Source: a bacterium | GTDB lineage: Bacteria > Zixibacteria > MSB-5A5 > GN15 > FEB-12 | Direction of reading: 5' to 3' | Assembly: GCA_043811375.1 (NCBI GenBank) | Contig: JBDRNJ010000004.1 | Coordinates: 104,538 to 168,537, forward strand | Length of the DNA stretch: 64,000 bases | In this document: positions 40,039-64,000 of the stretch, one piece after another | Position numbering within the stretch: position 1 is the first letter of the stretch | Layout: each line of letters opens with the position of its first letter | Notes under the pieces: generated by a model | What the model was told of the DNA's origin: nothing | Database searches by the model: none | The model's input: only the letters and a program-made list of their open reading frames with translations | Program-made: the position numbers and the translations under genes

Positions 40039-40518
40039 GCCGTTACCCTCATACTCCATCTTTCCGCAGAAACCATTCAATAATAATATATTGGTGGCTT
40101 AGATGCAAATATTGTAATCACGAATTGCCATAAATAAAATGTTGTAGATGTCAAGTAATTCGCGGACAGTTTTAATTGACGGTGGCCGGTGTTTGTCCGT
40201 CCAGGGTCTGGTGGGGCCGTTCGTGGTTGTAGTATCGCTGGAGCAAGGACTTCCTGGAGGCCGGAAAGAATCATCTTACCGGGGATACAACTCGTGAAGC
40301 GACCAGTTCTGTGCAATCTTCCTGGAGCGGCCAGTCTTCTTCCGGATGCGTCGGCCACTGACTCGTATATCCAGGTACCAGATTCGTCCATGTTTGTAGA
40401 TTCGCCCCATAGAAAGTGTCTTCAGCTTGGTACAGATTGGGCGCAACTACATCACACTCCCAGTAGCGCACATTTTAAGATATTGTCAAGTAGGAAGTTA
40501 CAGAATTACACAGAAATA

Positions 40519-40538
40519 TGGCGGAGAGGCAGGGATTC
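40519..40538 (-). mobile_element. att-core-like duplicate of a tRNA-Ser 3' end
   Basis: Minus strand GAATCCCTGCCTCTCCGCCA (T-arm half, acceptor stem, G discriminator, CCA); no 5' tRNA body. Confidence 0.75.
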
Positions 40539-40609
40539 AACGACCGGCATTTCTGGTAACTTCTTGGTTTCTAACAAAATGCGTGTATATCATTGCCATT
40601 ACAACCGTT

Positions 40610-46745: not shown

Positions 46746-47497
46746 ATAGAGAAACCTCCGAATCCAGCAGAACGGGTAGCCACATCATCCGGCTCTGTAT
46801 TCGAATATAGGTGCCATACCGCCTATCTCCAAGGGATTTGTGGCCACGCTGTCGTTAGGAGGGTATCTTTGTCAGTGTAGGTGGCAACACAGAGAAACCT
46901 ACGTGACCAGCGTCATTTCTCTACCCAGAGTCTACCCATGATAAGAGACCTTCTTTGAACAGGATAAGAGACACGAAGTATCGAAGCCCGATCGCACGCC
47001 ATGAGAACCGTTTCCATTTCCATTTCCCAGGCTTATTACTCCCTCTCCTCTAACTCATCCCTAACACTCCCAATAACTTAACCCCAGAAACCGAAAGACT
47101 CCTCAGGAAACCCAAATCCAACCCGCAATTCACAGAATCACCGAACAAACTGTCAATCTTCCACTCAACCGAGACAATAAACCTCAGGTATTCCCGGCGC
47201 GAAGCGCCGGGAAACATCAATTTCCGTCCGAAGGACGGCAATCTCTAAGACCCTCAAAATCCAAGAACACTATAAAAACCCACCGCTACCAATACTCGTA
47301 GAACCACCCATGAACCATGTCATTCCAATCCGAAATCAGCCACCTAATCCTCAACTTCGCACCGGCGCTTCGCGCCGAGTACTCAATTCCCAGCCGCTGG
47401 CTCAACCAATCCTCTCTAGCTGAGTCTGGCCGTAGGCAGACCATCCTACTGCCTCGCGCCATCTTTCTTCAAAATTCTCGGCTCCCGTATAACTGAA

Positions 47498-47538
47498 GAA
47501 AAAGAAAAAAAGAAAAAGAATGGAGAGAGAATCTCTCC
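47498..47538 (-). terminator. hairpin plus long oligo-T terminator
   Basis: Minus strand GGAGAGA-TTC-TCTCTCC then a T-rich tract right after the 47539 stop. Confidence 0.7.
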
Positions 47539-48490: not shown

Positions 48491-49759
48491 TCATTGGCCT
48501 TGATGACCAGCAGATCCAGTACTCAGAGATTCTCCAGACAGAACAAGGTCAAACCCCCTTTTCATATCATAGGGGATGTTTCGAGATTCTGCTTTTTGAG
48601 CCAATGAAGCTAATAAGGACAGTACACCTTTGCCAGATTCAAGTGCCTGAAGTTGTGATTGGAGCTTCTGAAATTGATCTGAAAGATCAGAATGTGACTC
48701 CCTCAGAAGCGCAAGCTCTTCACTGAGACCCAAGCTCTCCTTCTGTGCCTTGGAGATTTCATCCGCCTTAATTGCATTTGCAGTCTCCTTCTCAGAGATG
48801 CCTTCTCTATCAATGTATCTATCCACCATGTCACTGGACATTGCCCACCCGTATCTATAGCAGAGCTGATATCGGTTGAGCTTGTTGGCATAGTATGTTG
48901 CTGAGCTGTGCCTGAGCATGTGAGGTGTGACTCTGCGACTCAGTACTCTCCTTCCAAGCCTACTAATCAGCATTCTAACAGCCGCGTAGGACATAGGGAA
49001 AAGCTGGGCATGCGGGTTGTCCTTCAAAGGATGCTCTGTAAGCCAACCTTTCAAGTATCTAGTTGATAGAGGCGCAGATACTGTTCGAGGCTTGGTCTTG
49101 CTGAATTCCAAGCGGATCATAAAGCAGCCTGTTTCTTCTTTCCAGAACAGATGATCAGCTTTCAGCCTGACATTCAGTAGTTCTTCAATCCTCGCACCAC
49201 AGTCAAACAGCACCATTAACAAGGCTTTGTCTCTTGGATTAGAGGACCTTTCAATCAACAACTGCACATCAGCCCTGGACAAGGCTGGTATTTCTTTGAC
49301 AGGGGCGTAGGTCTCAATCCACTCCACGAGTTCTGGATATGTCTTGTTGTCGCCATCTTTCCATTTCCAGAACTTCCTTATAGCTTTTTTGATTCCTGCC
49401 TTTGTCTCATCGCTAAATGGCCTGCCTTTCTTGGTTTGGATGGCATCGGACTCCAAACGCTCAACAAACAACTCCATGTCATTCTGAGTAATGGCATCGA
49501 AAGGCTTTGTAAACTCACGGCACATAATCTTGAAGTTCGCCAAGTACTTCAGGCATGTAGCAGGGCCAATTCGTTTCTTGGCTCTTCCAATGACTGTCTT
49601 CCCGAGTCTACAGTCTCGAATGAATCTCAGAATTAAATCACGATTCTCTTGGTGAATAATGGTATCTCGCACTAGTCCTGCGAGAGCCTTCTCTAAGTAA
49701 ACAGATGACTTGTGAATGTCGATCTTGCCTTCTGCTGGGATACTGAGATTCTGCTTCAT
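48491..49759 (-). CDS. tyrosine integrase, archaeal-type signature
   Basis: GARIEE, SKT, HPLKDNP, HMLRH, YGW..SSDMVDRY; C-terminal coiled coil. Confidence 0.88.
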   Translation of the reverse strand: MKQNLSIPAEGKIDIHKSSVYLEKALAGLVRDTIIHQENRDLILRFIRDCRLGKTVIGRAKKRIGPATCLKYLANFKIMCREFTKPFDAITQNDMELFVERLESDAIQTKKGRPFSDETKAGIKKAIRKFWKWKDGDNKTYPELVEWIETYAPVKEIPALSRADVQLLIERSSNPRDKALLMVLFDCGARIEELLNVRLKADHLFWKEETGCFMIRLEFSKTKPRTVSAPLSTRYLKGWLTEHPLKDNPHAQLFPMSYAAVRMLISRLGRRVLSRRVTPHMLRHSSATYYANKLNRYQLCYRYGWAMSSDMVDRYIDREGISEKETANAIKADEISKAQKESLGLSEELALLRESHSDLSDQFQKLQSQLQALESGKGVLSLLASLAQKAESRNIPYDMKRGFDLVLSGESLSTGSAGHQGQ

Positions 49760-49797
49760 TATCATGGATAGGCACTGATCCACTTAAGCTTTGTCCC
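49760..49797 (-). promoter_or_regulatory. archaeal-type BRE/TATA-like leaderless promoter
   Basis: GGGACAAAGC-TTAAGT, 28 nt from motif end to ATG. Confidence 0.55.
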
Positions 49798-50220
49798 TGA
49801 AAATGAACAGATCCGTTCTATGGCCCCGAAGAACCGAGAACTAAACTGTTATGATCAGGAACATGTGGTGTCGTTTCCGACGACGATTGTACCTGTGTGC
49901 AGGTAGAAAGTGACTGGAGTATTTATACTTTTCGGTTGATCATAGATTTTCCTGATTGCCTCTGTTTTCGAGCAGAGCAGCTGAGCGCCCACGCCGAGAC
50001 GTGAGTACCTTCCTGCACCTTCTTGGGGAGTCGTCGAGAAGTATGTAAGCATTGCCCCTAATCTGTAACAGAATCGTAGTCCGCCCCGACCGGGAGAAGA
50101 ACGAAACTGTTACAATTCAGAGCAACAATGCGCTAGTTTATCGTCGATCATGCCTGTTTATAGGTAGGAAGACGTTGAAGTATCTATACTTTTCGGTTAG
50201 TACATTAAGTTCGCCCGGCA

Positions 50221-50436
50221 TTACATTGCGCCAGCAAGCCTGGGGGGCACCCACTGGACAATAGAATGTCTTACCACATCTCTCTGCGCGAATTCTGAGG
50301 CAATTAGAAACAAGGATTGGCTGAGTTGGCTGCCCAGGATCTCCCTAACCACGCCGCCGTATCGGGCCGATAGCAGTTTGGAGAAATCCTGAGGTCTGTA
50401 CAGTATCGAGTCATCAATCCGTGGCAATATGATCAT
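50221..50436 (-). CDS. 71-aa hypothetical protein coupled to the TIR gene
   Basis: SD AGGAGG and ATGA overlap with TIR stop. Confidence 0.5.
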   Translation of the reverse strand: MIILPRIDDSILYRPQDFSKLLSARYGGVVREILGSQLSQSLFLIASEFAQRDVVRHSIVQWVPPRLAGAM

Positions 50437-51602
50437 GTGTCCTCCTGATTGCGCAACGAGACGAGAACCCGTTCGAGTCCACGTCGGAATAGAGACTTGT
50501 TATTAGCCCATCCCCGGAAGTCCGCTGCTAATCGACTTCTAATCTGGGGTGCTAACCCAGAATCCCAGCCCGTAAACAGGTAATCATCCAGATTTAGGGG
50601 AATCAGAACCAGGATTTCTTTACTGTCACGAGCACGCAGAAGCCGCTCCTTCTCTAATGCCGCAAGGATCTCAGTTTCAACCCACCAGCTATTGAGTGAG
50701 GCCTCCGAACAGCACAATACAACTTTGTCTGATCGGCGGATAGCACGGCCAACCTCCTGATGAATCCGCTGGCCGGGAAGCAGATGATGTTCATCTATCC
50801 AGCACTGAATTCCCCGTCGCCGAAAGGACCTGTGCAAACGATGTGCAAACACCGTGTCCTTGTGAGAATAAGACAAGAAAGCGGAACCAGACATACCACT
50901 GGGGGGAATCAAGTCACGAAAGACCTGTATGTATTTGTCATCCGGCAGCGAATTGCGCAGAAAGAGTTCAATCTTGCCCTTCAACTCTGAATCGCCATGG
51001 ACAGCTTGGGCTGTAATATCCAAAGACGTAAGGGAGATTGCACAGGGGGAGTCATGCTGCATCTCGTCCAGTTCCAAAGCTAGGGAGAGATTGACGCCGT
51101 CAAGCGTGGTGTTGCCCAAAACCGCGCGAGAAAGATGACATCCCCTAACATCAACATCGACGATAGATGCCTGCTGTAATTGGACACCTCGAAGATCCGC
51201 ATGCGCAAGGACGGAGCCAGTCAGATTCGCAGACCGCAAGTCGGCCCATCGGAGATTAGCACCGGTAAGATCAGTGGATGTTAGATTGGCGCCCGCGAGG
51301 CTGCAACGGTCGAGAACGGCGCCACGCAGGTTAGCGCCTGTCAAATCGGCCCCATCCAACTGCACGTCGGATAGATCAGCACCGCACATATTCGCGCATC
51401 TGAGATTAGCAGCGATAAAGCTGGCAAGGCGCAGATCCGCGTCCATGAAGTCACTGCCTCGAAGATCCTGACCATTGAATGACAAGATGGGCATGGGCAA
51501 GTCATCCATTAGACGTGAGGCCTCCGAAGAGGCACGTAATGCCAACGCCTGCGTCCGAGAGGCCGGCTGTCCGTTCAATAGACTTTCACAAAAGTGCTTC
51601 AC
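50433..51602 (-). CDS. pentapeptide-repeat + TIR-domain protein
   Basis: ADL/ANL repeats; FLSYSHKD, CWIDE, SWWVETEI. Confidence 0.9.
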   Translation of the reverse strand: MKHFCESLLNGQPASRTQALALRASSEASRLMDDLPMPILSFNGQDLRGSDFMDADLRLASFIAANLRCANMCGADLSDVQLDGADLTGANLRGAVLDRCSLAGANLTSTDLTGANLRWADLRSANLTGSVLAHADLRGVQLQQASIVDVDVRGCHLSRAVLGNTTLDGVNLSLALELDEMQHDSPCAISLTSLDITAQAVHGDSELKGKIELFLRNSLPDDKYIQVFRDLIPPSGMSGSAFLSYSHKDTVFAHRLHRSFRRRGIQCWIDEHHLLPGQRIHQEVGRAIRRSDKVVLCCSEASLNSWWVETEILAALEKERLLRARDSKEILVLIPLNLDDYLFTGWDSGLAPQIRSRLAADFRGWANNKSLFRRGLERVLVSLRNQEDT

Positions 51603-51644
51603 AACATATTACTTCAGGGCTTCTGTTGTCTCACCTAACAACAC

Positions 51645-53189
51645 CTAGCAGGACTTTACCTTATTAGGTGACAGCACTGCAAGACTGATTGGTACTTCAA
51701 CTTCGTTCCGCACCAGCAGCACATTACCGGTCGCAGAAGTGGATGGATGGTAAGACCTCGCACTAAAGTGTCCGATTGGCGTATCTATTGATGGAGCAAC
51801 AACACCTCGGCTAGGCAGTGCATCACCGCCGCCTTCAATGGTCACCCCAAAAGCCGCCAATGTACTTACTCTGCAAGACTTGACAGCCAGAAGATGTTTG
51901 GCGATATCGACGGATAGGCTTATGTCGCTTTGTTTGGACGGAGCGTCAAGAGCCGATTGGCTGGTCGCCACGTTACAACCAGTAATGAGGAAAAGCAGGG
52001 CCAGCGCGTGGATGCCAGCAAATGCCCGTTGGAACATAACTCGAACAGGATTCTTCGGCTGCAAGCGCCCAAGAGCGGGTTTTGCCACTCGCTTAATCCG
52101 CTCGGCCTCACTGCTGCTAACCGAAATATTAAAGAGCTCTTTCAATCTCGATGCCCGACGCAGACGAAGCGTGTTCGCCCAGCTCTCTAAACGAGGATCG
52201 TCATTTTCACTGCCCATCCTGTGTACCCTATTTATGTCATCCTCAAGCGTTGTATCGATCTTGCCGATATCGAGCAAGATTTCCGCTCGAAATGCCCTGG
52301 CCTCTCCCTCCACCTCCCAGTCGTTGTTCTCTGTTGCCCACTCAATGACGCCGACCAGCCTTTCCACTGCAGCCTGCGAATCGCCACGACGTCCCTCAAC
52401 GTTAGCAATGTAGGCAAGCGAGAGTTGGGCCAAGTCCTCATACTTCCCGCCGTGCTCCCTGGCGAGCCTGATGGCTTCTTTCTGGTATTCAATTGCCTCT
52501 CCCCAGGAATCCCTCTTCTTAAGTCCCCCAAGCTGCACAATCGCTTGACCACAAATACTATTCGCGAAAATCAGTGCCTTCTCGTGCGGTTTCTCCAAGG
52601 TTGACACATACTTGGCCGACTTCAGAGCGTCTCTGGGCGCACCCCTGTGCAGGTCTGCGAGTGCCTTATTGATCTCAAGCCGGGATAGAACTTCATCTTT
52701 GAGGTCAGGAAGGTTGACAGCCGAATCGACCGTGTCCCAGGCCAATCCGAAACGAGAAAGATCAGTGTAGTACCGTGCCCTGAGCAACATCGCATCAGCG
52801 AGGAGATTCGAGTCATTTGACTCCCTCGCGAGATTCTCAGCTATCTTAATATAGGGATCAGCTTTCTTAGGCTGAGAAGGCGGACCACTAAGAAGACTAT
52901 GGGCCACATCTCGACACTCTTCGAATGAGTGTCCGTTCTCCACCCCTGGGCCTTCGTTACCGGAAACGTTCTGACGATCCCGACTGAGTTGCTGGTGAAG
53001 AAAAACAGAGTCAACATCGAGCACTCGAGAGAGAGAGTCAACCGCTGCATCAGAAGGGAGCAGTCGCCCTGATAGCCATTTCGAAACGGTTGATCGAGTC
53101 ACGCCCGCCATGCCCGCGAGTTTGGATTGGATGAGCCCAATGGCGTCCATCTCCCCCTGAAGCCATTCTCCGAAGTAAGACCTTTTCAT
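51645..53189 (-). CDS. XRE-HTH + TPR-like protein with hydrophobic lipobox-like internal segment
   Basis: QSKLAGMAGVTRSTVSKWLSG..LP HTH; helical repeats; ALALLFLITGC. Confidence 0.75.
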   Translation of the reverse strand: MKRSYFGEWLQGEMDAIGLIQSKLAGMAGVTRSTVSKWLSGRLLPSDAAVDSLSRVLDVDSVFLHQQLSRDRQNVSGNEGPGVENGHSFEECRDVAHSLLSGPPSQPKKADPYIKIAENLARESNDSNLLADAMLLRARYYTDLSRFGLAWDTVDSAVNLPDLKDEVLSRLEINKALADLHRGAPRDALKSAKYVSTLEKPHEKALIFANSICGQAIVQLGGLKKRDSWGEAIEYQKEAIRLAREHGGKYEDLAQLSLAYIANVEGRRGDSQAAVERLVGVIEWATENNDWEVEGEARAFRAEILLDIGKIDTTLEDDINRVHRMGSENDDPRLESWANTLRLRRASRLKELFNISVSSSEAERIKRVAKPALGRLQPKNPVRVMFQRAFAGIHALALLFLITGCNVATSQSALDAPSKQSDISLSVDIAKHLLAVKSCRVSTLAAFGVTIEGGGDALPSRGVVAPSIDTPIGHFSARSYHPSTSATGNVLLVRNEVEVPISLAVLSPNKVKSC

Positions 53190-53631
53190 TGTTTCTCTCC
53201 TGATTAAATAAGTGTTTCCATCATCTGAATGCAATTGCTTCTAGAACTAATATACATGTGTTTACAAGAATGTCAAGAAGAAATTGTAACCTATTGTTAG
53301 CTATTAGAATAGAGACTACAACATGGTTCTTTACTATCGAGTTGATTGATGCTAACTAGTCCTGATGATTGTAGATAGACTATACCTCGTGAGACATTTG
53401 GTGATATCTGGTGAGTCACAATATGGAGGTTGGTTTGTCTCGCAAACAGTTGCGATCATTTAGGCTGAAGACGCTGGTCTTGGAATTAGCCGAGACCCTG
53501 GATAGCAATGTCATATCGTGAATCTGATGTGCCGAGGTCGACGTTCTACCGATGGAAATAGGCGTATGCCGAACAGAGGAAGCCGGTCTGCTACTGAAGA
53601 AACCTGTCGCCAAGGGCCATCCGCGGCCGCG

Positions 53632-53808
53632 GAGGACCTGGTGTTTCTAGTGGACTATCGCTTTGGCGGCGCACCTATGACAACTTGTCTGGAGGAAGGC
53701 AATGTTGACGGTTTAATTGGCCCTGTTGGTGCGGTCGACGTGTCCGACTTGACGTACCTCGTGGCCTACCTTTTTAGCGGAGGTCCACCTCCGCCACCGT
53801 GCCCAGAA
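53632..53808 (+). pseudogene. orphan dockerin-like 3' gene fragment
   Basis: EDLVFLVDY..EEGNVDG..VDVSDLTYLVAYLFSGGPPPPPCP with no upstream gene body. Confidence 0.75.
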
Positions 53809-53849
53809 TATCGAGCCATACAGCGGAACAACGTCATCTAATCAAGGAT

Positions 53850-54923
53850 TCAACCAGCCAACAACGCCCCAGCCCTTCTCTCCAAATTGACCCTTTTGTC
53901 AACGTGAGCCATATCCCGAGCATAGGCTGTGAGGCCCTGGACCATGCCCCAGAGGTTTGTTACATCCTCACCCTCTGCGGTGCCTGTGACCCACGCTCCA
54001 GAGACTTCCTTTTTTGTGAATGGCTTGGCTTTGAACCAGGCTAGTGTATCTTCAAGGCTATTGCCAATGCGCATTTCCATTGCCCTATCAGCTGTGACCC
54101 TGATCGAATCATCCAGGCCTGTATTCTCTGCAAATCTATTGAGAAGCGGTAAAGCTGCGTGATAGAAGTGCTGCGGAGCATGGCTTCTGTGATAGATCTT
54201 CATTTCCTTGACGTTTTCAGCACCCCAGACAATATGGTTGCCACACACATAGTTATAGAGGAATGTTGTTAAACCAAAGGTTGAAGCTCCAGTCTCGGAG
54301 TTCCAGATAAAGAAGCCTCTGCCGAGTCTGGCATTGCCTATTTCTACTGGGTTTTCATCATTAACCATGAATGCAAACATGTCGTGATCTGAGGCATACA
54401 AACCGCTGTTTTCTGATTTGTTTGAAGAACGAGCAGGAGGAACCCGCCATGAAGTGCCTTGAACAGCTCCTTTTAAACTCCTGACAACATCAGCATCCCA
54501 TATCCGTCCATACGAGGCGCTTGTGAATGCAGATGCCCATAAATATGACGGATCGTTGGTTTCTGGGAATTCCTCTCTGACTAGAATCTTACTATTGGCG
54601 TCTGATCTCTTCAGACCGTGCTGAAGGCAGTCTTTTGCCATATCTGGCGGGAGAGTTCTCAGATAACTGGCAGGAGCCTCAATGTTCCGACACAATTGCC
54701 CGAATGCCCAATTGGAAAGGAGTGCATGTTGGGCATTTCCGTTCAGAGCAACTGCTCCTTCAGGAGTTACTGTAAGTGGAAGATCCTGCAGGGATTGTAG
54801 TAGCTCCTTCGAATTTTGCTTTCTGTCGAGGGTAAAGGAGTACAGCTCATCTAGATTGGCAAACCTCTGGTCAGGTGGTCTTGTTGCCCATTGTCTGTGT
54901 GCATCATAAAGGTTCTGTGGCAT
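53850..54923 (-). CDS. DUF932-like mobile-element protein
   Basis: QWATRPPDQRF, WAFGQLC, LYASDHDMFAF, GFFIWNSE.G, VCGNH. Confidence 0.75.
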   Translation of the reverse strand: MPQNLYDAHRQWATRPPDQRFANLDELYSFTLDRKQNSKELLQSLQDLPLTVTPEGAVALNGNAQHALLSNWAFGQLCRNIEAPASYLRTLPPDMAKDCLQHGLKRSDANSKILVREEFPETNDPSYLWASAFTSASYGRIWDADVVRSLKGAVQGTSWRVPPARSSNKSENSGLYASDHDMFAFMVNDENPVEIGNARLGRGFFIWNSETGASTFGLTTFLYNYVCGNHIVWGAENVKEMKIYHRSHAPQHFYHAALPLLNRFAENTGLDDSIRVTADRAMEMRIGNSLEDTLAWFKAKPFTKKEVSGAWVTGTAEGEDVTNLWGMVQGLTAYARDMAHVDKRVNLERRAGALLAG

Positions 54924-54961
54924 TCAAATTGGAATATCTGTTTCTTTATTTGCTTTGTGCC
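54924..54961 (-). promoter_or_regulatory. archaeal-type BRE/TATA-like leaderless promoter
   Basis: GGCACAAAGC-AAATAAAG, 28 nt from motif end to ATG, no SD. Confidence 0.5.
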
Positions 54962-55216
54962 TGTTTAGAGGTGGAACGCTGGAGAAAAAGAAAAAGAAAA
55001 AGGCCTGGCAGCCATCCTTACTGCCTTGTCATCACAAGACCCGACCCGTAATAATTCTCCAGCCCATGCCGATAATAAAATTATAGAGCCCCCGGCCGGC
55101 GAAGACCATTGGTATAATATGTTGGAATACAATCACTTCTGGGGCCAGAAATTGAGCCTATTTAATCTGGTTGCGATCTCAAGCGCCGAAGAGTAAATTC
55201 TGTCACAATATGCGTT

Positions 55217-56449
55217 ATGATTTGTTCCAAACATTTAAGTACAGTGGAGTCATGTAGTTCCATGAGGGGAAGTCGCTTGGACGCTGATGTCATTGTACTT
55301 GGGGCGGGAATCGCCGGTTTACTTATAGCAAGTGAGCTATCGAAACAGGCATCAGTAATCGTCATCGAGAAAGAGTCCTCAATCCCAAAAAACAAATATT
55401 GGCTCACCAACAAGCGAAGCGTTAGCCTGAATCCCGAACTGAAGCATTGTATTGACAGCCATTATGGATTCATTGATATTAGTTGCTACGATGAAACCTC
55501 CTTTAGATGTGAAGGAGACTTCTATCTTTGGGATACCGACAAACTACTTCAGCACTTGCGAGCTGTGATTGATAGGAACGACGGTCAAATCCTAACGGGA
55601 GTTACGTTTGAGTCACATGAATGTTTTGATGATTATGTAGAAGTCCGATCCGAGAGATTAACGTTTCGTTGCGCGCTAATAATTGATTGCATGGGTTTTG
55701 GTTCACCAATAATCAATGGTAACAAGATACTAAACGCTACCGGATATTACATCCTTTACGGAAAGACCCTCAAATTGAAGAAGCCATTGGATCCAATTGG
55801 CTTCTGCAATCCAGTTAAGCAACCTAAGGCAACTTATTTTGAGGCTTTTCCGACCTGTGAAGGAAATGCTCACTGTGTCATCATTGCTGCTGAATCACAG
55901 CCTTACCCATGGATGAATCTCAAAGCTGAATTTGAAAAGATGATAGAGGATTCGTGGCTTTCTGCAATACTTGACTCCAAGTCAGTCTCAACTGCAGAAT
56001 TGGGCGGCATCATACCGATAGGCGAGTTGGACATGACCGCCATGAATCGCTTGCTTTTCTTCGGAGAATCGAGGCAACTTAATCCAGCTTCCACGGCTAC
56101 TGCGCTCACACGTATGCTATACACATACAAGAAGCTATCACAACAAGTGATCGAAAGGCTGCAGTCAAATAAACTCTCGATGAAACATCTGGATGCCATC
56201 GATGTGACATTTCTATCATCATTCAATCGCAAATTTCAATTGAATGTGTTCAAAGAGTCACTAAGCTGGGATTCCGATCAGTTCAAGAGGTTAGTTAGAC
56301 AAATGCAGAATCTTGGTAGTGAAATGGTATATGATATTCTGTTCGGAGACCTGGAAGCTCGCAGCGTTCTTGATCCAACTACGCTCTTACACTTGATAAG
56401 GTCCCGCAATTCAGTTCTATTGAGAAATGCTGCTCGGGCGCTGTTTTAG
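55217..56449 (+). CDS. FAD-dependent oxidoreductase, lycopene cyclase/geranylgeranyl reductase-like (start may be 55262)
   Basis: DVIVLGAGIAG, IIDCMG, GGIIP, FGES. Confidence 0.75.
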   Translation: MICSKHLSTVESCSSMRGSRLDADVIVLGAGIAGLLIASELSKQASVIVIEKESSIPKNKYWLTNKRSVSLNPELKHCIDSHYGFIDISCYDETSFRCEGDFYLWDTDKLLQHLRAVIDRNDGQILTGVTFESHECFDDYVEVRSERLTFRCALIIDCMGFGSPIINGNKILNATGYYILYGKTLKLKKPLDPIGFCNPVKQPKATYFEAFPTCEGNAHCVIIAAESQPYPWMNLKAEFEKMIEDSWLSAILDSKSVSTAELGGIIPIGELDMTAMNRLLFFGESRQLNPASTATALTRMLYTYKKLSQQVIERLQSNKLSMKHLDAIDVTFLSSFNRKFQLNVFKESLSWDSDQFKRLVRQMQNLGSEMVYDILFGDLEARSVLDPTTLLHLIRSRNSVLLRNAARALF

Positions 56450-56462
56450 GTACTTAACTTGC

Positions 56463-57059
56463 TTACGGAATGTAGTGTGTTAATACAAGCGCGAGAATTG
56501 TTCCCAAAACAACATTTCCTGCAAGCAATAGGTAAAGAACCCAGTGCTTTCTCATTTCCGTCACTTTTTCCACAAAGCCTTCTCTGAGTATAAGTGGCTC
56601 CATCGCAACGTGTAGACCAATCATGTTGATTCCTGCAATGGCTTCGATCGTGATCTTTAGGAACGCGTATGGGATTGTAATGATTCCGAATATCGCCTCA
56701 GATCCAGTAATGCCGGCTTCTGCAAACAGAATTCCTGTGATTACAATAAACGCAACTCGTGCAATCCCCTTATGAGTATCCTGAATGAGCTTAGCTGGAT
56801 CGGCTGTTAGACCAAATAGTTTAAGACACCAGTACCAGACAGTCTTCCCGAGTACATAAAACACAAGTATGAAAAGAATGACGACTAATATAGAAATCAG
56901 AATTAACCGTATCGAGACAATGATCTCTTGCAGTTCATCCAAGACAACTATCTTATTTATGTCCCAGGTGAGATGCCCTACTAAGGCTACCAAGAAAAGA
57001 ACGGATAGTATGGCTAAGACGCCGATGAATTTTCCGAAGAATATCTTGATTTTGGCCAT
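56463..57059 (-). CDS. hypothetical multi-pass membrane protein
   Basis: About five hydrophobic segments; SD AGGAGG. Confidence 0.7.
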   Translation of the reverse strand: MAKIKIFFGKFIGVLAILSVLFLVALVGHLTWDINKIVVLDELQEIIVSIRLILISILVVILFILVFYVLGKTVWYWCLKLFGLTADPAKLIQDTHKGIARVAFIVITGILFAEAGITGSEAIFGIITIPYAFLKITIEAIAGINMIGLHVAMEPLILREGFVEKVTEMRKHWVLYLLLAGNVVLGTILALVLTHYIP

Positions 57060-57162
57060 TTTGTAAACCTCCTGAGAGTCGCAAACCCTTGCTTATTGGG
57101 GTTCACTTTTCATCAGAAAGGTGAACTCCTCTCAAGCTTCAATTCTCGTTGAATATGCACAT

Positions 57163-57191
57163 AGTATAGCCAATTTCGTCGGATCTGTCAA
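57163..57191 (-). promoter_or_regulatory. near-consensus sigma70 promoter
   Basis: TTGACA-17 nt-TATACT. Confidence 0.75.
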
Positions 57192-57421
57192 ATGACAATT
57201 CCACTTGTTGGGAAGTCTATTTGACTGTGGTCAGGATTGCCATCCACAGTAGAAAATAACAGTACGGCACCTGTGGGCTTCTCCACCTAATCTGATTGTA
57301 AGACGTATTCTCGCCAGCTTTCACAGCGATGGCAACACCTTTCGTCGAGTGGCGGCCCCTGCAGACACCTTATCTGCTGGCCACCTAAAGACTTATAAGC
57401 CTTAATCACTCATCCCATCAA

Positions 57422-58108
57422 ATGAAGACCATTATTGCCAAGTTCATCAAACTGATGAAAGGTGCACCTCCCGGAAAGGTCATGAACAGCAAGCCTAAAT
57501 GGATCATTGACGAGAGTAAGTATCTCAATGAATCTGAAGTAGCCAGGCTACGGCAGGCAGCCAACAGGCTGCAGTCCACTGGCCTCAGGCAGTCCAAGTT
57601 CAGCCTCGTGAGGACCTGTTTTATGCTCGAACTCGGACTTCAGGCAGGCTTACGAGTCAGTGAGATGGCTGCCTTGAAACACCAGGCTCTTTTGTTGGAC
57701 AACGGCCGGTCGTCCATTCTTGTCAACGGCAAAGGCAACAAAACTCGACCAGTCTGGATCAGTTTGGCATTCAAAAAGGCCTGTTTCAAATACAGCGCAG
57801 ACAAGGAGAGTTTTAACTACAGCACTGACGGCGATTCCTGCCTACTGAATAACCTGCAAGGAGAGGGGATTTCAAAGCGGGCATTACAAAAAGCATTCAA
57901 GCAGCTGCTCGAGTTGGCAGGCTTGCCTATGTCTTATCACATACACTGCCTCAGACACACCTACTCCACTTTTCTCCTGAGAGCCAGTAATAACAACTAT
58001 CGCTTTGTACAGCAGCAGCTCGGCCATGCCTCGATTCGCACAACTCAGGTGTATGCGGGAGTCATGGAGTCTGAAGGGAGGAAAGCTGTTGAGAAGCTAT
58101 ATGGATGA
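57422..58108 (+). CDS. short tyrosine recombinase (catalytic domain only)
   Basis: GLRVSE, GKGNK, HCLRHTY, QLGH, TTQVY; TTATAAG begins 29 nt before the ATG. Confidence 0.9.
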   Translation: MKTIIAKFIKLMKGAPPGKVMNSKPKWIIDESKYLNESEVARLRQAANRLQSTGLRQSKFSLVRTCFMLELGLQAGLRVSEMAALKHQALLLDNGRSSILVNGKGNKTRPVWISLAFKKACFKYSADKESFNYSTDGDSCLLNNLQGEGISKRALQKAFKQLLELAGLPMSYHIHCLRHTYSTFLLRASNNNYRFVQQQLGHASIRTTQVYAGVMESEGRKAVEKLYG

Positions 58109-58170
58109 ATGGACTTGAGGTCAAAAACCAACAATAGATATGATAAATCATCTGATATAGGGAGAAGGTC

Positions 58171-59133
58171 ATGAACTCTGCAGGGAAAACAACATTGTTA
58201 TCTGTATTGTTGAGCACGCTTTTTCTTGCACAAAGTTGCAGCGAGAATGACAATAAGGACAACAATCCGGTAAATGGAAATCAGGAACTCATCAGCACCC
58301 CGAATAGACCAGGCGGCCCAGGCACTGGTCAACCAAGGGAAAATCTTACCTACACTGCTGGAGGAGCATCCAGCAATCTCGGACATAATCTTCAGTATCG
58401 ATTTGACTGGGGAGACGGTAATTACTCAGCCTGGTTGTTCTCAACAAGTGCAACTCATTCATGGTATGACATAGGTACATACTATATAAGAGTGCAAGCC
58501 AGATGCGCATCTCACACTGGTAATTCTTCTGACTGGTCTGGAACTAAGTCAGTTTCAATAGACCGAGGCTTGAGAACCCTAACACTCAACCCAACAGCAG
58601 ATGCGTATGTGAGTTCTGGTGACTACTCTCTGAACGAAAACTATGGTGGTGATGTCAATCTTTGTACAGGCAATCACAATTACGGTGCTTATGTAGCTGA
58701 GTACTGGTCTTTTGTTAAGTTTGATCTGTCAAGCCTTCCGAGCAATGCAGACATTCAATCGGCTAATCTCCGACTTATCTCTGGAAGGAATAACATACTT
58801 GACACTATATGGGCGACAGTGACAGTGTCCGCAATCCTTGGGGGGTCCTGGTCTGAGTATGGTGTGACCTACATGAACATGCCCAGCAGTTACTATTACC
58901 TTTTCGCAAGAGATGTTCCCTTTGGCAATTTCACAGAGTCTCGCTTGTGGAACATTGCGACTGCATTAGAAAAATGGATCTCAGGAGAATGGACAAACCA
59001 CGGCTGCGTTATCAGATCCCACAGTATTCACTCTGGCGGCAATCCCAGATACTATGATTGCTGCTTTTATTCGCGAGACCTGTCTACTGGAGGCGCAGGA
59101 CCTCAGTTGATCATAGAATACTATGAACAATAA
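58171..59133 (+). CDS. lipoprotein with PKD-like and DNRLRE-like domains
   Basis: Lipobox-like AQSC; YRFDWGDG; PTADAYV...FVKFDLS...GPQLIIEY. Confidence 0.75.
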   Translation: MNSAGKTTLLSVLLSTLFLAQSCSENDNKDNNPVNGNQELISTPNRPGGPGTGQPRENLTYTAGGASSNLGHNLQYRFDWGDGNYSAWLFSTSATHSWYDIGTYYIRVQARCASHTGNSSDWSGTKSVSIDRGLRTLTLNPTADAYVSSGDYSLNENYGGDVNLCTGNHNYGAYVAEYWSFVKFDLSSLPSNADIQSANLRLISGRNNILDTIWATVTVSAILGGSWSEYGVTYMNMPSSYYYLFARDVPFGNFTESRLWNIATALEKWISGEWTNHGCVIRSHSIHSGGNPRYYDCCFYSRDLSTGGAGPQLIIEYYEQ

Positions 59134-59139
59134 GAGACA

Positions 59140-59679
59140 ATGAACATGTCTGACAGAAACAGATGTGAAAAGATCATGATCAAGGGGATTGGTATGATGT
59201 CTTTGACTGCGCTACTAGCAGCTTTCATATTGGTGTGTTCTGGGTTTGTTCTTGGTTGTGGAGGTGATGATCCACCGACAGGTAATGATCAGATAGACTA
59301 CAATGCTCAGAAGCAGGGAATAGTCGAGCTCTATCACTTGTGGTCAGAGAAACTTAAGCTTCAAGACTATGACGGTGCTATTAACCTGACCACACCTGGC
59401 GCAGGTGCCTTTCGTTTTACCCAGACCGCCAAAGAAGCATGGGACAGAGGAGATGTGAACTACTGGGAATTCTCCTACATTCTGGCAAACTGGAATGCTG
59501 ACTACGCAGAAATGGGTTACGCCGAGGTTTATGGTAACGTCGTATTCTATCAGTATAGTTCGTCCTCTGGTGAATTGATTGACTCAATGGGCTTTGCTTC
59601 AAAATGTCAGCGCCAAGGAGATAAATGGAGAATCGATACTTTCAGGTGGGACTATGAGCTGTATTGGTGGACAAGATGA
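59140..59679 (+). CDS. putative lipoprotein, NTF2-like
   Basis: Hydrophobic leader and VLGC lipobox. Confidence 0.6.
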   Translation: MNMSDRNRCEKIMIKGIGMMSLTALLAAFILVCSGFVLGCGGDDPPTGNDQIDYNAQKQGIVELYHLWSEKLKLQDYDGAINLTTPGAGAFRFTQTAKEAWDRGDVNYWEFSYILANWNADYAEMGYAEVYGNVVFYQYSSSSGELIDSMGFASKCQRQGDKWRIDTFRWDYELYWWTR

Positions 59680-59753
59680 TCTCATAAAATGTCACAAAAC
59701 TCTGTCAACCGAGGCATGGGTCATCACAACACAAGAACAGCAAGACTTGCCTT

Positions 59754-60638
59754 TTACAGTCTACCACAGCACTGCTTGTATTTCTTGCCGCTTCCGCACG
59801 GACAGGGATCATTGCGGCCCACTCTTTCTGCCTTCACTGGTGTGCCAGCAGAGGTCTGTGGCTTGTCATAGACACTAAAGTCAGCATAACGCAAAAGGCT
59901 CCTGTCCAGTTGCTCTACTTTTTTGTCAAACTGAGGATGATCCAGTGGAATCCTTTCTCTGAGCAAAACCAGGGATTCACGTGCATCTATATAGGCACCC
60001 ACAAGTGGGTCTTCGAACCTCATCCCCTTGGCAAAGGGGTTGATACGATTGTTGTTTAGGTACTTGGCAGCATCGCTGACATAGCGTTCTACAATTGGCA
60101 AAAAGCTCTGATCACCATAGTCAGCCATCAGCAGCACTGCTTCATCTGAATCAACAACCAGGTGGTCAAGTAAGGCTTTGTGTATCCTTTGATCCTTAAT
60201 GCCCAGATTGGCAAGTACCCAAATCCATGTTGACGCGTATTCAGGATTGTCTCGATCCTCTTGATACCTCTGGCAAGCAGGTTCCAGAGCCGGCAAACCC
60301 ATTCCCTCGAGCGCATTCATGGTTGCGCTATAAATATAAGTGTCGAAATTGCCTTTAACACGATCCAGTATTTCTATCAGTGGCCCGACGGCCTTCTCTG
60401 TCCTCAGTTCACCCAGCAGTTTACAGGCATGTATTACTCCCCATTCCAGATTACGATCCCAATCATCTCGAGAATCTGACTCAGTGATAAGTGTCTTGAG
60501 TTTGTCAACAAGGAAGTCGATGAGCTGTTCTTGGTCAGGGTATTCTCTGAGCTTCTTCAGAAGCAACTGTGAAGGCTTGTACTTGCAGACCCTAGCAAAC
60601 AAGCTCTCCAGATCGCTTTCAAGTTTCTTTCTTACCAT
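59754..60638 (-). CDS. HEAT-repeat protein with SEC-C motif
   Basis: [36 protein letters not shown]. Confidence 0.85.
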
Positions 60639-60884
60639 AACTCAACGTCACCTAATTGCAAATGAACAACTCAAAAACATGTGTCATTTCATAGAATACG
60701 GCAAGCTGTTTATTCGCAACCTGAATCTTACCAAGAGGCGGTAGCTGACTGGTCAGATCCGTTTCTCGACTTTGACGAATGACTCAGATCAAATACTATC
60801 CTCGAAAGCACTGGAGTATCCTCTCTGATCAACCAGAATGGATGAAGTCACATCTTTTATAAAGTCTCAGTTCTTTGACCTTTC

Positions 60885-61202
60885 ATGTACAGGGTAATTG
60901 GGACTGAGACTTATCTTCGAGAGATAGATAAATGGACAAAAGCAGATCAGGAAGCAGCAGAAAAGATCCCAACGAAATTAGCTGATAATCCGTTTGCTGG
61001 TGATCCATTAGGCTACCGCTATCTGCGAGAGAAAAGGATCAGAGAAAGGCGAGTCTACTTTCTGGTCTACGAGGACTTAAGACTTGTATTGCTGGTAGCT
61101 GCGAGTAACAAGAAAAAACAACAGGCAACCATCAATCACATAAAGACGCATTTGGATGAATTCAGAACCATTGCCCAGAAACTCATTAGGCAAGCTGCTT
61201 AA
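60885..61202 (+). CDS. RelE-superfamily toxin
   Basis: LADNPFAGDPLGYRYLREKRI..RRVYFLVY; TTATAAA begins 28 nt before the ATG. Confidence 0.75.
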   Translation: MYRVIGTETYLREIDKWTKADQEAAEKIPTKLADNPFAGDPLGYRYLREKRIRERRVYFLVYEDLRLVLLVAASNKKKQQATINHIKTHLDEFRTIAQKLIRQAA

Positions 61203-61320
61203 ATCTTCCTTTTTCTAGATCGTGTTTACTGTTGACGAACTGCCCGACAAGGTCAAAGTCAATTTCCTCTAGCTCTTTGAGTCGTTCATACTCCTTTCTG
61301 CTGATTGTGATTGTTTCCAT
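61186..61320 (-). CDS. putative 44-aa antitoxin, convergent with RelE
   Basis: METITISRKEYERLKELEEIDF...DLEKGR; GAAAAATATATAAA with TATA 29 nt before the ATG. Confidence 0.7.
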   Translation of the reverse strand: METITISRKEYERLKELEEIDFDLVGQFVNSKHDLEKGRFKQLA

Positions 61321-61653
61321 GTTCAAGCCAGGAACTTGAGGTTTATATATTTTTCTGAGGGTTAGGCAAAGACGGTTGGTGAACGACCCTGACACAGCGG
61401 GGCTTCGCTAAGTTGCTGTGGTCGACTAAAACCGCTGTGTGCTGGGCATTTCGGAATATCCCCCCGACTGTACGTCGTCAAATAACATGCAGCGCCAGAT
61501 ACAAAGGCAAGAACACCCTTCTTGTCGAGGCAACCACATTCTGGTATTCGCCTGTTTGCCCTTATGAGAGCACACACCAGACACCCCAATCCCGCAACCC
61601 CTTCAAATCCCCCCTTTTAAACATTTCCATACTAGTTGTCGTGCCTCAAAAGT

Positions 61654-61691
61654 GGCACAAAGCTTATATGGCGGAATAGCTTACCTAATCC
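61654..61691 (+). promoter_or_regulatory. archaeal-type BRE/TATA leaderless promoter
   Basis: GGCACAAAGC-TTATAT, 28 nt from motif end to ATG. Confidence 0.6.
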
Positions 61692-61907
61692 ATGATTGAG
61701 GAGCCCAACAAGAACCGCGAGATCACTCACATGCTCCTACAGGAGTCGCTCTGGAAAGTAGAAGACAAAGTCAATGTGATTCTTGAGAGTATGGCAGATC
61801 ACGAAGCTGAGCTTATTCGTCTGAAACGTCATATGACTCAGGTTCTTGAGAGACTCGCAGATATTGAAAAACACGCCAAGCCTCGATCAAAGCAATCAGG
61901 CAACTAG
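61692..61907 (+). CDS. small coiled-coil hypothetical protein
   Basis: Heptad pattern; first gene of a co-oriented run. Confidence 0.65.
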   Translation: MIEEPNKNREITHMLLQESLWKVEDKVNVILESMADHEAELIRLKRHMTQVLERLADIEKHAKPRSKQSGN

Positions 61908-61910
61908 CAA

Positions 61911-62243
61911 ATGGACCAAGAAAAAAGAAACACCAATGTTGAACACGTAGGAATAGACAATCTCAGAACCAAGTTTCATAGCCTGAGAATCGGTGAGAAG
62001 ATCCCACAGCTAGAAATCAAGCAGATCAAGAAGGTCACAAACCCCTCCGGACAGAGCAATCTCTCAGGAGTAGACTACAAGTACATTATTGAGGATGTAG
62101 ACGGAAGAATCCTCACTGTAAACTCCTGGACACTGTGGAAGAAGATCTCAGCAGTGCTGCAAGAGGCTGGTTCTACGCAGGTCACTCTAATTTTAGAACA
62201 CACTGGAATCGAAGACTACACTGTGAAAGTGATCAACTCCTAA
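61911..62243 (+). CDS. hypothetical beta-rich protein (possible OB fold)
   Basis: 3 nt after upstream stop; alternating beta-strand pattern. Confidence 0.6.
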   Translation: MDQEKRNTNVEHVGIDNLRTKFHSLRIGEKIPQLEIKQIKKVTNPSGQSNLSGVDYKYIIEDVDGRILTVNSWTLWKKISAVLQEAGSTQVTLILEHTGIEDYTVKVINS

Positions 62244-62295
62244 TCCTGCTTCATTCTCAACAACATCAATACAGGAGGTTCCACCGTGCACTAAA

Positions 62296-62964
62296 ATGAA
62301 TCCGCAAGTCAGAACCATGCTCGAGAATATGTATAGCTTACTGGATAAGAGATTTCAGGATTCCAGTAAGTCCTGGGACAGTTTCATTGAGTTTCTGGCA
62401 GTAGACAACTGTGCTCCTCTGCTTTGTCAACTGAATCACGGATTAGACTGGTTTTTCAAAGACAGCAAACTTGCCCAGTCACTCATGGCTGTTTATGACC
62501 CAAAGATTCTGCAGTCTGACTATTACGATCATCTAGGAGATATGTACTTGGAAAAGATCGTGTCAAGAAGTGAATCCACACGAAAAGGAATCTTTCTCAC
62601 ACCTGCAGAAGTAGCGCAAATGATGGCCAGCATGACCATAGAGAAGACTGACAGACAGGTAAATGTGCTGGATCCAGCTGTGGGCTCTGGCAGGCTACTT
62701 ATGGCTGCGCATAAACAAGCTCCCCGAGCCAGGCTGTTTGGAGTGGACATTGATCTCAGATCTTTAAGAATCGCCTTTACCAACCTGGCCATCCACAGTA
62801 TCTCAGGCTATCTACTGCACGCCGACAGCTTGAGACACGAGATAGATATTGCCAAAGAGGCTGGTCAGCAAAACTGGCAATATGCCAATCACTGGTACTC
62901 GTGCATGGACCAACTCAAGGTGCTGGATAGTGGCCCCAATTATAATCTTTCCCTCAACAGCTAA
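62296..62964 (+). CDS. N6-adenine MTase-like protein lacking motif IV
   Basis: GIFLTP, VLDPAVGSGRLL, GVDID; no NPPY/F. Confidence 0.8.
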   Translation: MNPQVRTMLENMYSLLDKRFQDSSKSWDSFIEFLAVDNCAPLLCQLNHGLDWFFKDSKLAQSLMAVYDPKILQSDYYDHLGDMYLEKIVSRSESTRKGIFLTPAEVAQMMASMTIEKTDRQVNVLDPAVGSGRLLMAAHKQAPRARLFGVDIDLRSLRIAFTNLAIHSISGYLLHADSLRHEIDIAKEAGQQNWQYANHWYSCMDQLKVLDSGPNYNLSLNS

Positions 62965-62991
62965 ACCCCGCTCACCCTTCCTAATCAGAAA

Positions 62992-63258
62992 ATGATATCA
63001 TTGCCAACCACGCCTAGATGGCAGGACGTACTCCTAGTCATTTACAGAAGCCCTGAGAGATACCGATACTGCGAAAAGCTCACTAAACATGTAAAAGGCT
63101 CCCGAAGCTATTTTAGAGAAATAGTGAGGCAACTTGCAGATCACGATCTGATACAGATTGTGCCAACCAAGAAAATCAAAAAGCTCGAGCTCACAGAAAA
63201 AGGCCACAGAGTGATCTTCACTATACTAGAAATGCGATCAGAACTCGGGCAATTCTAA
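62992..63258 (+). CDS. winged-helix DNA-binding protein
   Basis: SRSYFREIVRQL...LI...LELTEKG. Confidence 0.7.
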   Translation: MISLPTTPRWQDVLLVIYRSPERYRYCEKLTKHVKGSRSYFREIVRQLADHDLIQIVPTKKIKKLELTEKGHRVIFTILEMRSELGQF

Positions 63259-63270
63259 TATGCTAAACAT

Positions 63271-63678
63271 TTGTACCAAGGATCACCGCCCATGCCACCA
63301 AACGGCCATCACAATCAAGAGAACCAGAATGACTTAGTAGGTACTTTGCTAAATCTGCCTGCCAAGAGCCTGGAACTGCGAGTAGGACAGTTGGAGGCTG
63401 ATATTTGCTCAAGACAACGAATCAGTGATGAGGTGCTTTCAAAGTTAGGTACTCACAGGTTGAGACTCAGAGAGCAGCAATTCCGGCTCAGGTATAGCAG
63501 TCCTGTTGATCAAGCCTTCCGAGTCAGGGAACAGCTTACACGTGAGCTAGTAAATGTGGATGAACTCATCAGGCGAGAAAGAACCGACTGTTTTCAAAGC
63601 CTTGTGCATCTGAAAGTGGAACTCCATCAAGCGCAAGAAGACCTCACATTCGAAAGGCAGAAGCTAACACTGATTTAA
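63271..63678 (+). CDS. coiled-coil hypothetical protein (start uncertain)
   Basis: Long heptad-rich ORF in the same run. Confidence 0.55.
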   Translation: MYQGSPPMPPNGHHNQENQNDLVGTLLNLPAKSLELRVGQLEADICSRQRISDEVLSKLGTHRLRLREQQFRLRYSSPVDQAFRVREQLTRELVNVDELIRRERTDCFQSLVHLKVELHQAQEDLTFERQKLTLI

Positions 63679-63775
63679 CAAACCACCTGCTTTTGAGACA
63701 GGCACTCACCTTGATAGCAAGAGTATTACCCTGTCGCCATCTCTTTGATTTATCTGCCGGAGTAATTCAGTGAAA

Positions 63776-63860
63776 ATGACCTCAATAGACGAAACCAAGG
63801 AACTGCTAGAGAAACTAGAACCGATAGTAGGCAGCCGAGCCAAGAGTTTGTGGTATATGA
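63776..63860 (+). pseudogene. 5' end of a gene interrupted by an IS
   Basis: MTSIDETKELLEKLEPIVGSRAKSLWYM, then the IS end. Confidence 0.55.
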
Positions 63861-64000
63861 TGTATCGGTTCAGCAGAAGTCGGACACGGATGGGCTTTTT
63901 GTTAAGACGTAGTTTTAATAACTTAGTCTTAGAGAAAGGAGCAAGCCATGCGTGTCAAACAGGGCCAGAGTCCGGAATCGGTAGTGAAGGAGATTCGTCG
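63861..64000 (+). mobile_element. IS3-family element, left end and orfA start (ATG 63948), truncated by window
   Basis: TG-headed end TGTATCGGTTCAGCAGAAGTCGGACA; SD AAAGGAG; MRVKQGQSPESVVKEIR. Confidence 0.75.

Follow-up and report, generated by a model that had tools for sequence, protein, structure and literature searches.

The 64,000-nt window analysed here (positions 104,538 to 168,537 of contig JBDRNJ010000004.1, assembly GCA_043811375.1, Zixibacteria) carries a genomic island bounded by a repeat of the host tRNA-Ser, and three backbone genes of this island start behind the same box, GGSACAAAGC. We find that comparison of upstream sequences supports reading these boxes as the BRE (transcription factor B recognition element) side of archaeal-type BRE-TATA leaderless promoters, although the chromosome is that of a bacterium in which neither the TATA-binding protein (TBP) nor transcription factor B (TFB) was detected. 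With a probability of roughly 50%, we suggest from these sequences that the island is an element that alternates between Nanoarchaeota and bacteria, its boxes being read by TBP and TFB only in the archaeal host.

Three backbone genes start at the same distance from a shared box

Exact matches to GGSACAAAGC lie at 49788-49797 (minus strand), 54952-54961 (minus) and 61654-61663 (plus), each followed after 28 nt by an ATG. These starts belong to int1, which encodes a Nanoarchaeota-type tyrosine integrase (48491..49765, minus), to a DUF932-like gene that falls below the Pfam cut-off and has no Shine-Dalgarno sequence (53850..54923, minus), and to the 61692 gene, the first of a backbone operon on the plus strand. 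The identical spacing before three genes, first noted in the original prediction, is thus confirmed by exact matches. The hexamer after the box is TTAAGT before int1 (where GGGACAAAGC forms the BRE side and TTAAGT the TATA-like box, 49780..49797, minus), AAATAAAG before DUF932 (GGCACAAAGC followed by AAATAAAG, 54944..54961, minus) and TTATAT before the 61692 gene; the TATA boxes proposed before 57422, 60885 and 61320 are present as well.

The unusual thing about the 10-mer is its position, not its occurrence. With up to one mismatch it is found 10 times in the window against 8.67 expected, and it has 19 exact matches in the 3.56-Mb genome; an ATG at +28 accompanies only 3 of these 19, all inside the island. 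Sharing of a 10-mer at the same offset by 3 of 22 genes, as in the island, came up in none of 2000 shuffles and in 6 of 2000 gene sets drawn at random from the host (22 genes each), on which grounds chance is rejected. The DUF932 and 61692-gene starts match those of their homologues. For int1, two ATGs are in frame (49765 and 49759), of which only the second (49759) gives the 28-nt spacing; the box start in int1 homologues ranges from -37 to -50, and the identical spacing is therefore not conserved for the int1 promoter and is partly luck.

The boxes belong to archaeal-type leaderless promoters

Homologous upstream regions of six of the genes, 55 distinct sequences in all, were compared; 49 of the 55 have no Shine-Dalgarno sequence, and the remaining six are DUF932 copies without the box. 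Dropping these six and one Nanoarchaeota locus leaves 48 element promoters, which include metagenome contigs of unknown host, to be set beside 216 Nanoarchaeota and 1465 host genes, the starts of which come from a simple first-ATG caller that blurs their frequencies. With distances counted to the ATG, not to a mapped start site, a WTAWR motif starts at -31 to -26 in 33 of the 48 element promoters (shuffle mean 4.9, maximum 12) and in 116/216 Nanoarchaeota genes, against 85/1465 host genes. A makes up 69-71% at -33/-32 of the element promoters and T 50-56% at -10/-11, and the region from -40 to -24 is more alike between elements (0.45-0.57) than the leader (0.31-0.35). The Nanoarchaeota genes have their TATA peak at -30 to -24 with an A-rich stretch upstream at -37 to -32, whereas in the host genes a Shine-Dalgarno sequence peaks and TATA does not. 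The BRE-TATA leaderless reading of the original prediction is borne out in this respect, as the layout is that of Nanoarchaeota genes and of Nanoarchaeota int1 homologues, and is unlike that of host genes.

This layout also resembles a haloarchaeal leaderless promoter, described with a TATA box centred at -27/-28, a BRE of sequence CGAAA and WW at -10/-11 (PMC2151090). The element promoters share with that archaeal core promoter the TATA box near -27/-28, the A-rich BRE, the T-rich -10/-11 and the missing Shine-Dalgarno sequence, and two further boxes of the window, CCGAAAAG-TATA, contain the published CGAAA. They differ from it in standing on a bacterial chromosome, TBP and TFB having been found neither in the host genome (95% complete) nor in five other carriers, and in an extension and dyad that are specific to the element. 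The extension is the GG..CAA part of the box (GR(N)NCAA), present in 26/48 element promoters but in only 4/216 Nanoarchaeota and 31/1465 host genes, and missing from most int2 and toxin-antitoxin promoters; in the promoters of int2, of the toxin-antitoxin pair and of a second island on contig C27, the TATA box is kept and the upstream sequences differ. Before the 61692 gene, GG..CAA lies at -38/-39 in 9 of 10 copies. It forms there the right arm of a dyad, TTGTRCC-N8-GRCRCAA (score 3-7 of 7), which in the window reads TCGTGCC-N8-GGCACAA, its right arm being the reported box and TTATAT following (61639..61669, plus). This dyad, overlapping the BRE, is likely an operator for a regulator of the element, for which the winged-helix protein of the backbone is a candidate; an activator box is a possible role for GG..CAA. 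Clusters from Poribacteria and from Nanobdellota/Woesearchaeota are similar to the winged-helix protein, a lead only. The N8 dyad also raised the idea that the 10-mer is a recombination core, which was set aside as the dyad scores only 1-4 of 7 before DUF932.

The integrase and its attachment sites point to Nanoarchaeota

Residues R190, K221, H280, R283, W305 and Y315 of the int1 product are invariant in 12 close relatives. An unrooted 48-row int1 tree places the window integrase in a 13-row clade of 12 bacterial and one Nanoarchaeota sequence (SH-aLRT 94), and its starred branches force at least four changes of domain label. Relatives of int1 occur in 78 and relatives of the island's ATPase in 41 of 401 Nanoarchaeota genomes, both tallies including the unpublished genomes G304 and G457, on which alone no claim rests; these Nanoarchaeota genomes are incomplete, and a close integrase occurs in only 1 of the 401. 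The backbone gene c5 adjoins the ATPase in 24/30 Nanoarchaeota loci, and the Nanoarchaeota integrase is often placed after a tRNA 3' end and a BRE-TATA box.

Upstream of int1 lies an attP-like attachment site (49805..49852, minus) with inverted arms around a core at 49821-49831 that matches a tRNA 3' end in the Nanoarchaeota genome G061 at all 11 nt (anticodon, by eye, Lys TTT). The 3' end of G061's intron-bearing tRNA-Asp recurs exactly in a second core (49986..49996, minus), and a complete third attP unit (50041..50113, minus) has arms at 50107-50113 and 50065-50073 and a core at 50082-50094. In G061 a 13-mer core forms the end of the intron-bearing tRNA-Asp, recognised by eye from acceptor stem and anticodon (Rfam has no match at this long-intron gene), and brackets a 23-kb island; on a longer contig the close integrase stands in tandem behind the integrase of the 23-kb island. 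In bacterial genomes the same att site retains both inverted arms and has no tRNA, which indicates that attP is unrecombined there. The att cores of 15 bacterial genome loci match Nanoarchaeota tRNA ends over 10-11 of 11 nt in 11 cases (8 exact) and host tRNA ends in one (0 exact), against 0 for reversed and 2 for reverse-complemented ends, and this although the elements are saturated at synonymous sites; the comparison sets were 62 tRNA-like 3' ends from two Nanoarchaeota genomes and 41 host ends.

Between and beyond these sites stand three boxes that had gone unnoticed. A fourth copy of the 10-mer, GGGGCAATGC at 50049-50058 (minus), lies inside the third attP unit with no gene behind it. The other two are of the form CCGAAAAG-TATARATA: CCGAAAAG-TATAAATA (49919..49935, minus) points into attP with no ATG at leaderless distance and has a similar box in 12/26 close loci, and CCGAAAAG-TATAGATA (50180..50196, minus) lies upstream of the third attP unit. 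The window thus holds three tandem cores corresponding to different Nanoarchaeota-type tRNA ends, together with duplicated BRE-TATA boxes, an arrangement that we read as probable scars of successive integrations.

The arrangement recalls the SNJ2-type archaeal tyrosine integrases, which target tRNA genes (PMC5861418, likened here by layout): the integrase adjoins att, the short core equals a tRNA 3' end, and in the archaeal loci the tRNA is restored. Unlike these, the bacterial island keeps attP unrecombined and has a second, bacterial-type integrase at its end. As a separate observation, the att region upstream of int1 in one homologous locus (L241) is, unlike that of other copies, an almost perfect palindrome of 45 bp around the core.

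An invertible segment carries promoters of two types

The TATA box of int2, a short tyrosine recombinase gene with the catalytic domain only (57422..58108, plus), lies with the first int2 codons between two 24-bp inverted repeats. The left repeat, site A (57102..57125), forms a 13-pair hairpin, and the right repeat, site B (57443..57466), falls within int2 codons 8-15 and holds an in-frame second ATG. Inside the segment, the TATA-like box CTTATAAG stands about 29 nt before the int2 ATG (57385..57402, plus), and a sigma-70-type promoter, TTGACA-17-TATACT (57163..57191, minus), in the present orientation points at a membrane-protein cargo gene with a GGAGG Shine-Dalgarno sequence (56463..57059, minus).

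We compared 14 copies of this switch, 12 from seven genomes and two from metagenome contigs. Both orientations are seen across different copies, 13 to 1; the 13 are in the TATA state, all with the TATA box kept (by eye). In this state a hairpin forms from the left repeat, in many cases with a T-rich run behind it, and a canonical TTGACW-16/17-TATWTT promoter lies just outside site A in 8/14 copies. The one copy in the flipped state has the sigma-70 promoter directed into int2, with the ATG of the repeat, behind AAAGG, as the would-be start; int2 itself is broken in this copy. From this break and from adjacency, int2 is predicted to catalyse inversion of its own promoter segment. The int2 family is large, with 418 protein clusters at E ≤ 1e-30.

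In the fim switch of E. coli, fimS is inverted by FimB and FimE. The int2 segment shares with this switch and with Bacteroides invertible promoters a short tyrosine recombinase, a promoter segment of 240-430 bp, inverted repeats, a place upstream of surface-protein genes and the occurrence of both orientations; it differs in that one repeat lies inside the first codons of the recombinase itself and in that the two states use promoter types of different domains.

The island belongs to a family of conserved elements in bacteria

Of 60 genomes from the same order, 6 hold close relatives of int1 (54-58%), and named relatives come from Zixibacteria, Ignavibacteria, Armatimonadota, Planctomycetota, Cloacimonadota and one Nanoarchaeota. 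The shared backbone comprises int1, int2, DUF932, a 71-aa gene, a gene for a protein resembling single-stranded DNA-binding proteins (SSB-like), a methyltransferase, the winged-helix protein, c5, a HerA/VirB4-like ATPase and c8. The far end is occupied by a bacterial-type integrase and a gene resembling excisionases; in 5/5 complete elements both are at the same end. In three of five relatives the island spans 45-57 kb between tRNA-Ser and a 14-18 bp copy of its 3' end; one of the other two has a 68-bp repeat, and in the last no repeat was found. int1 and attP lie inside whole islands bounded by tRNA-Ser and its repeat. The window shows only attR, the 3'-end repeat of the host tRNA-Ser at the left boundary (40521..40539, minus; same layout in relatives), as the contig ends before the other boundary.

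Synonymous sites between elements are saturated, with a proportion of synonymous differences (pS) of 0.65-0.96 for all pairs listed. Persistence of motifs and open reading frames (ORFs) at such divergence indicates that the elements are not decaying relics, and the silent promoters of the original prediction are not supported if taken as a decaying remnant. Broken copies do occur: int1 in loci L007/L030 and L069, int2 in L329 and the ATPase in the window. Two elements share bacterial outer-membrane cargo at the same position and at saturated divergence. Relatives of int1, int2 and the SSB-like protein were not found in the viral contigs searched, nor was any int2 match found in a plasmid collection. 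In the DUF932 tree, copies with a Shine-Dalgarno sequence and copies with a TATA box need three changes, compatible with one origin, which is not used as evidence here.

Several observations on this family stand apart. The second island on C27 (L105/L106, about 1.3-40 kb) lies beside tRNA-Asp. Besides an int2 switch and a HerA-like ATPase it holds genes resembling c5 and one resembling ArdC, and its TATA-led genes have a GC-rich element (GCGCGA-type) upstream; an AAA gene of this contig may be Orc1/Cdc6-like, its matches being to generic AAA proteins only. Upstream of c8, a short palindrome, CCCTTAGGGTAA, is conserved in several elements (L023, about 10190-10221, and orthologues). L251, L252 and L258 are AT-rich elements, possibly recent arrivals, in which restriction-modification-like cargo is seemingly TATA-led beside bacterial-looking genes, the AT richness inflating their TATA count.

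An element that may alternate between archaea and bacteria

The original prediction left a choice between promoters silent in this host and promoters read by factors that the element itself encodes. The second has no support among the 24 + 26 + 76 proteins scanned (a part of the ORFs), which include no TBP, TFB, sigma factor or polymerase family. The product of the gene at 61911, considered as a TBP-like reader, was rejected as its model points to an OB-fold (weak matches, Z 5.0-5.3, root-mean-square deviation about 3 Å over 71-76 residues), and its SSB-named phage matches are at E 0.003 or weaker. We consider a third option, put at even odds, in which the promoters would be used in an alternate, archaeal host. 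Somewhat more tentatively, the elements may form an integrative family present in both domains, with a separate integrase and separate expression signals for each and a switch that records the last domain visited.

If the element does alternate, in bacteria it would be inserted by the bacterial-type integrase and its backbone would stay mostly quiet; in archaea int1 would insert it at tRNA-Asp or tRNA-Lys, and leaderless mRNAs of int1, DUF932, int2 and the SSB-methyltransferase-ATPase operon would be made from the TATA promoters. The int2 segment would be a domain-sensing toggle. In bacteria, expression of int2 by the bacterial polymerase would be confined to the flipped state, with the sigma-70 promoter and the ATG of the repeat in use, so that the switch would run to the TATA state and rest there, and the archaeal machinery would drive it the opposite way. 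A possible episymbiotic life on bacteria has been proposed for some Pacearchaeota and Woesearchaeota (PMC8204110), and integrons have been described as platforms on which genes are transferred between domains (PMC9668308). Like integrons, the element would move DNA between archaea and bacteria by site-specific recombination; unlike integron cassettes, it would do so as a whole of 45-57 kb with two integrases of its own.

Several findings weigh against this reading. No complete element was seen in any archaeon. Searches of Nanoarchaeota genomes gave no SSB-like gene (0/401), no DUF932 (0/251) and no int2 orthologue (0/201), the int2 matches being only generic ones of 33-36% in 12 of the 201. 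Named close homologues are nearly all bacterial, the exceptions being one Nanoarchaeota integrase and one 11.6-kb contig labelled Promethearchaeota; the int1 tree is unrooted, and its close clade (SH-aLRT 94) is unstarred. DUF932 and int2, found here in bacteria only, carry TATA promoters, which fits bacterial use. The GC content at third codon positions (GC3) of int1 follows that of the host (rho 0.62, p 0.018, n = 14, kin not independent, values carried over by hand), in keeping with a long stay in bacteria. Outer-membrane barrels and lipoproteins, for which archaea have no evident use, are among the cargo. Finally, HerA/TrwB/TraG-like ATPases are present in the elements, and they alone were found for transfer, no relaxase, type IV secretion or mating-pair family occurring among the scanned proteins.

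Were the element shown to shuttle, it would be a natural cross-domain vector and would provide a sequence-based test of Pacearchaeota and Woesearchaeota living on bacteria, in which the att core names the archaeal tRNA and the chromosome the bacterial host; its distribution would then map physical partnerships of Nanoarchaeota with Zixibacteria, Ignavibacteria and other bacteria.

Bacterial readings of the promoters

The strongest competitor to alternation, possible though clearly less probable, is that the element had one or few origins in Nanoarchaeota and now lives in bacteria only. The BRE-TATA boxes that it inherited would have been put to new use there, an activator of its own, bound at GG..CAA/TATA in the place of a -35 box, recruiting the bacterial polymerase for leaderless transcription; mRNA of this kind is translated by bacterial ribosomes. 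The promoters sit on genes found only in bacteria here (DUF932, int2, SSB-like), and the largely bacterial homologues and the host-tracking GC3 noted above speak for the same view, as does the specificity of GR(N)NCAA for the element (26/48 vs 4/216). A -10 TANNNT box at leaderless distance is not enriched (4/48 vs 5.2 by shuffle). The SetCD promoters of SXT/R391 and the AcaCD promoters of IncA/C likewise have poorly conserved -10 boxes (PMC4542580), so that the missing -10 is compatible with such an activator; in both systems, as here, one box precedes several backbone units, here near -35 if transcripts are leaderless. Unlike these regulons, the element has a TATA box after the box and genes without Shine-Dalgarno sequences, and no FlhCD-like family match was found among the scanned proteins.

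Candidates for this activator would be the winged-helix protein or c3, c5 or c8; the c8 model is of low confidence (pLDDT 55.6), its fold search was uninformative and no usable Atlas match was found. The -35-region activator box offered as an alternative in the original prediction is possible: the element-specific GG..CAA and its place as a dyad arm before the 61692 gene agree with it, but the promoters of int2, of the toxin-antitoxin pair and of C27 differ upstream of TATA, so that no single activator box covers the whole class. A purely bacterial life with such an activator also leaves unexplained the att cores identical to archaeal tRNA ends and the close integrase at a Nanoarchaeota tRNA locus, and the scanned proteins hold no sigma, TBP or polymerase family. 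If it is instead bacteria that read the promoters, bacterial RNA polymerase is enabled by some small protein to work from TATA-type leaderless promoters. Either this reading or alternation between domains would be new; no such element is described in the literature searched, which left out most subscription journals.

We regard as unlikely a repeated one-way capture from an unsampled archaeal reservoir into bacterial tRNA islands, where the TATA-led genes would be silent and bound to decay and their conservation would reflect selection in archaea only. The domain label changes at least four times on the starred branches of the int1 tree and some copies are broken, as such capture would have it. 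It is at odds with the sigma-70 promoters built into the conserved int2 switch (8/14 copies), with bacterial outer-membrane cargo held in common at saturated divergence, and with the bacterial integrase and excisionase-like gene at the same end of all five complete elements; nor was the archaeal reservoir found.

Far less probable still is that the boxes are bacterial sigma elements, either the -24 box of sigma-54 (TGGCAC) or, with the TATA-like hexamer taken as -10, a sigma-70 promoter. The sigma-54 consensus has GG at -24 and GC at -12, 10 nt apart. The host encodes sigma-54 and the 61692 site reads TGGCAC-N5-TTAT; yet 4 of the 10 copies before the 61692 gene have GA in place of GG, the slot of the -12 GC holds AT or AA, and the int2 promoters have no GG, so that sigma-54 is unlikely as the alternative sigma factor offered in the original prediction. 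Activity in E. coli has been reported for an archaeal promoter fragment (PMC8943987), which counts for a bacterial sigma reading, but TANNNT at the TATA position is not enriched (10/48 vs 9.9 by shuffle), a consensus sigma-70 scan lists none of the three box sites, and either sigma reading leaves a short leader without a Shine-Dalgarno sequence in a host that uses them. An artefact in which archaeal DNA was mis-assembled or mis-binned into a bacterial genome is hardly credible: all genomes are metagenome assemblies and some loci sit on short contigs, but the 168-kb contig of the island also carries host genes and the host tRNA-Ser repeat, and the layout of the island recurs in other genomes on contigs of 219 kb to 4.46 Mb.

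Other features of the island

The backbone operon (61692..63678, plus) consists of the 71-aa gene, the OB-fold SSB-like gene, an N6 methyltransferase-like gene, the winged-helix gene and c5, and continues in relatives with the HerA/VirB4-like ATPase and c8. In the window only a 5' fragment of the ATPase gene remains (63770..63874, plus), cut at the contig end by a multi-copy repeat (63861-64000) that stands at the ends of several contigs and is probably the end of an insertion sequence.

Upstream of this operon lies a convergent, overlapping pair (60850..61356) of a RelE-like toxin gene (60885-61202, plus; weak match, E 0.002) and a 44-aa partner (61186-61320, minus), each behind a TATA-like box at -30; the element of genome G464 holds a homologue. 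Two lipoprotein-like cargo genes follow int2 (58171..59679, plus), the first with PKD and DNRLRE domains and a Shine-Dalgarno sequence. On the minus strand at 50433-53234, a pentapeptide-repeat/TIR fusion and a 71-aa partner stand behind a helix-turn-helix-TPR gene with a canonical sigma-70 promoter (53276-53249), possibly as defence cargo.

No tRNA was detected in the window by ARAGORN, and no Rfam match in 40000-64000. Beyond attR lies the remnant of an older integrase (40276-40446), and a lone fragment of a host dockerin-like C-terminal repeat occurs in the island without its gene (53640-53841). Downstream of the int1 genes, a strongly C/A-skewed stretch with several short GC hairpins (GCGAAGC-type) at 46950-47500 is a possible single-strand origin or transfer origin.

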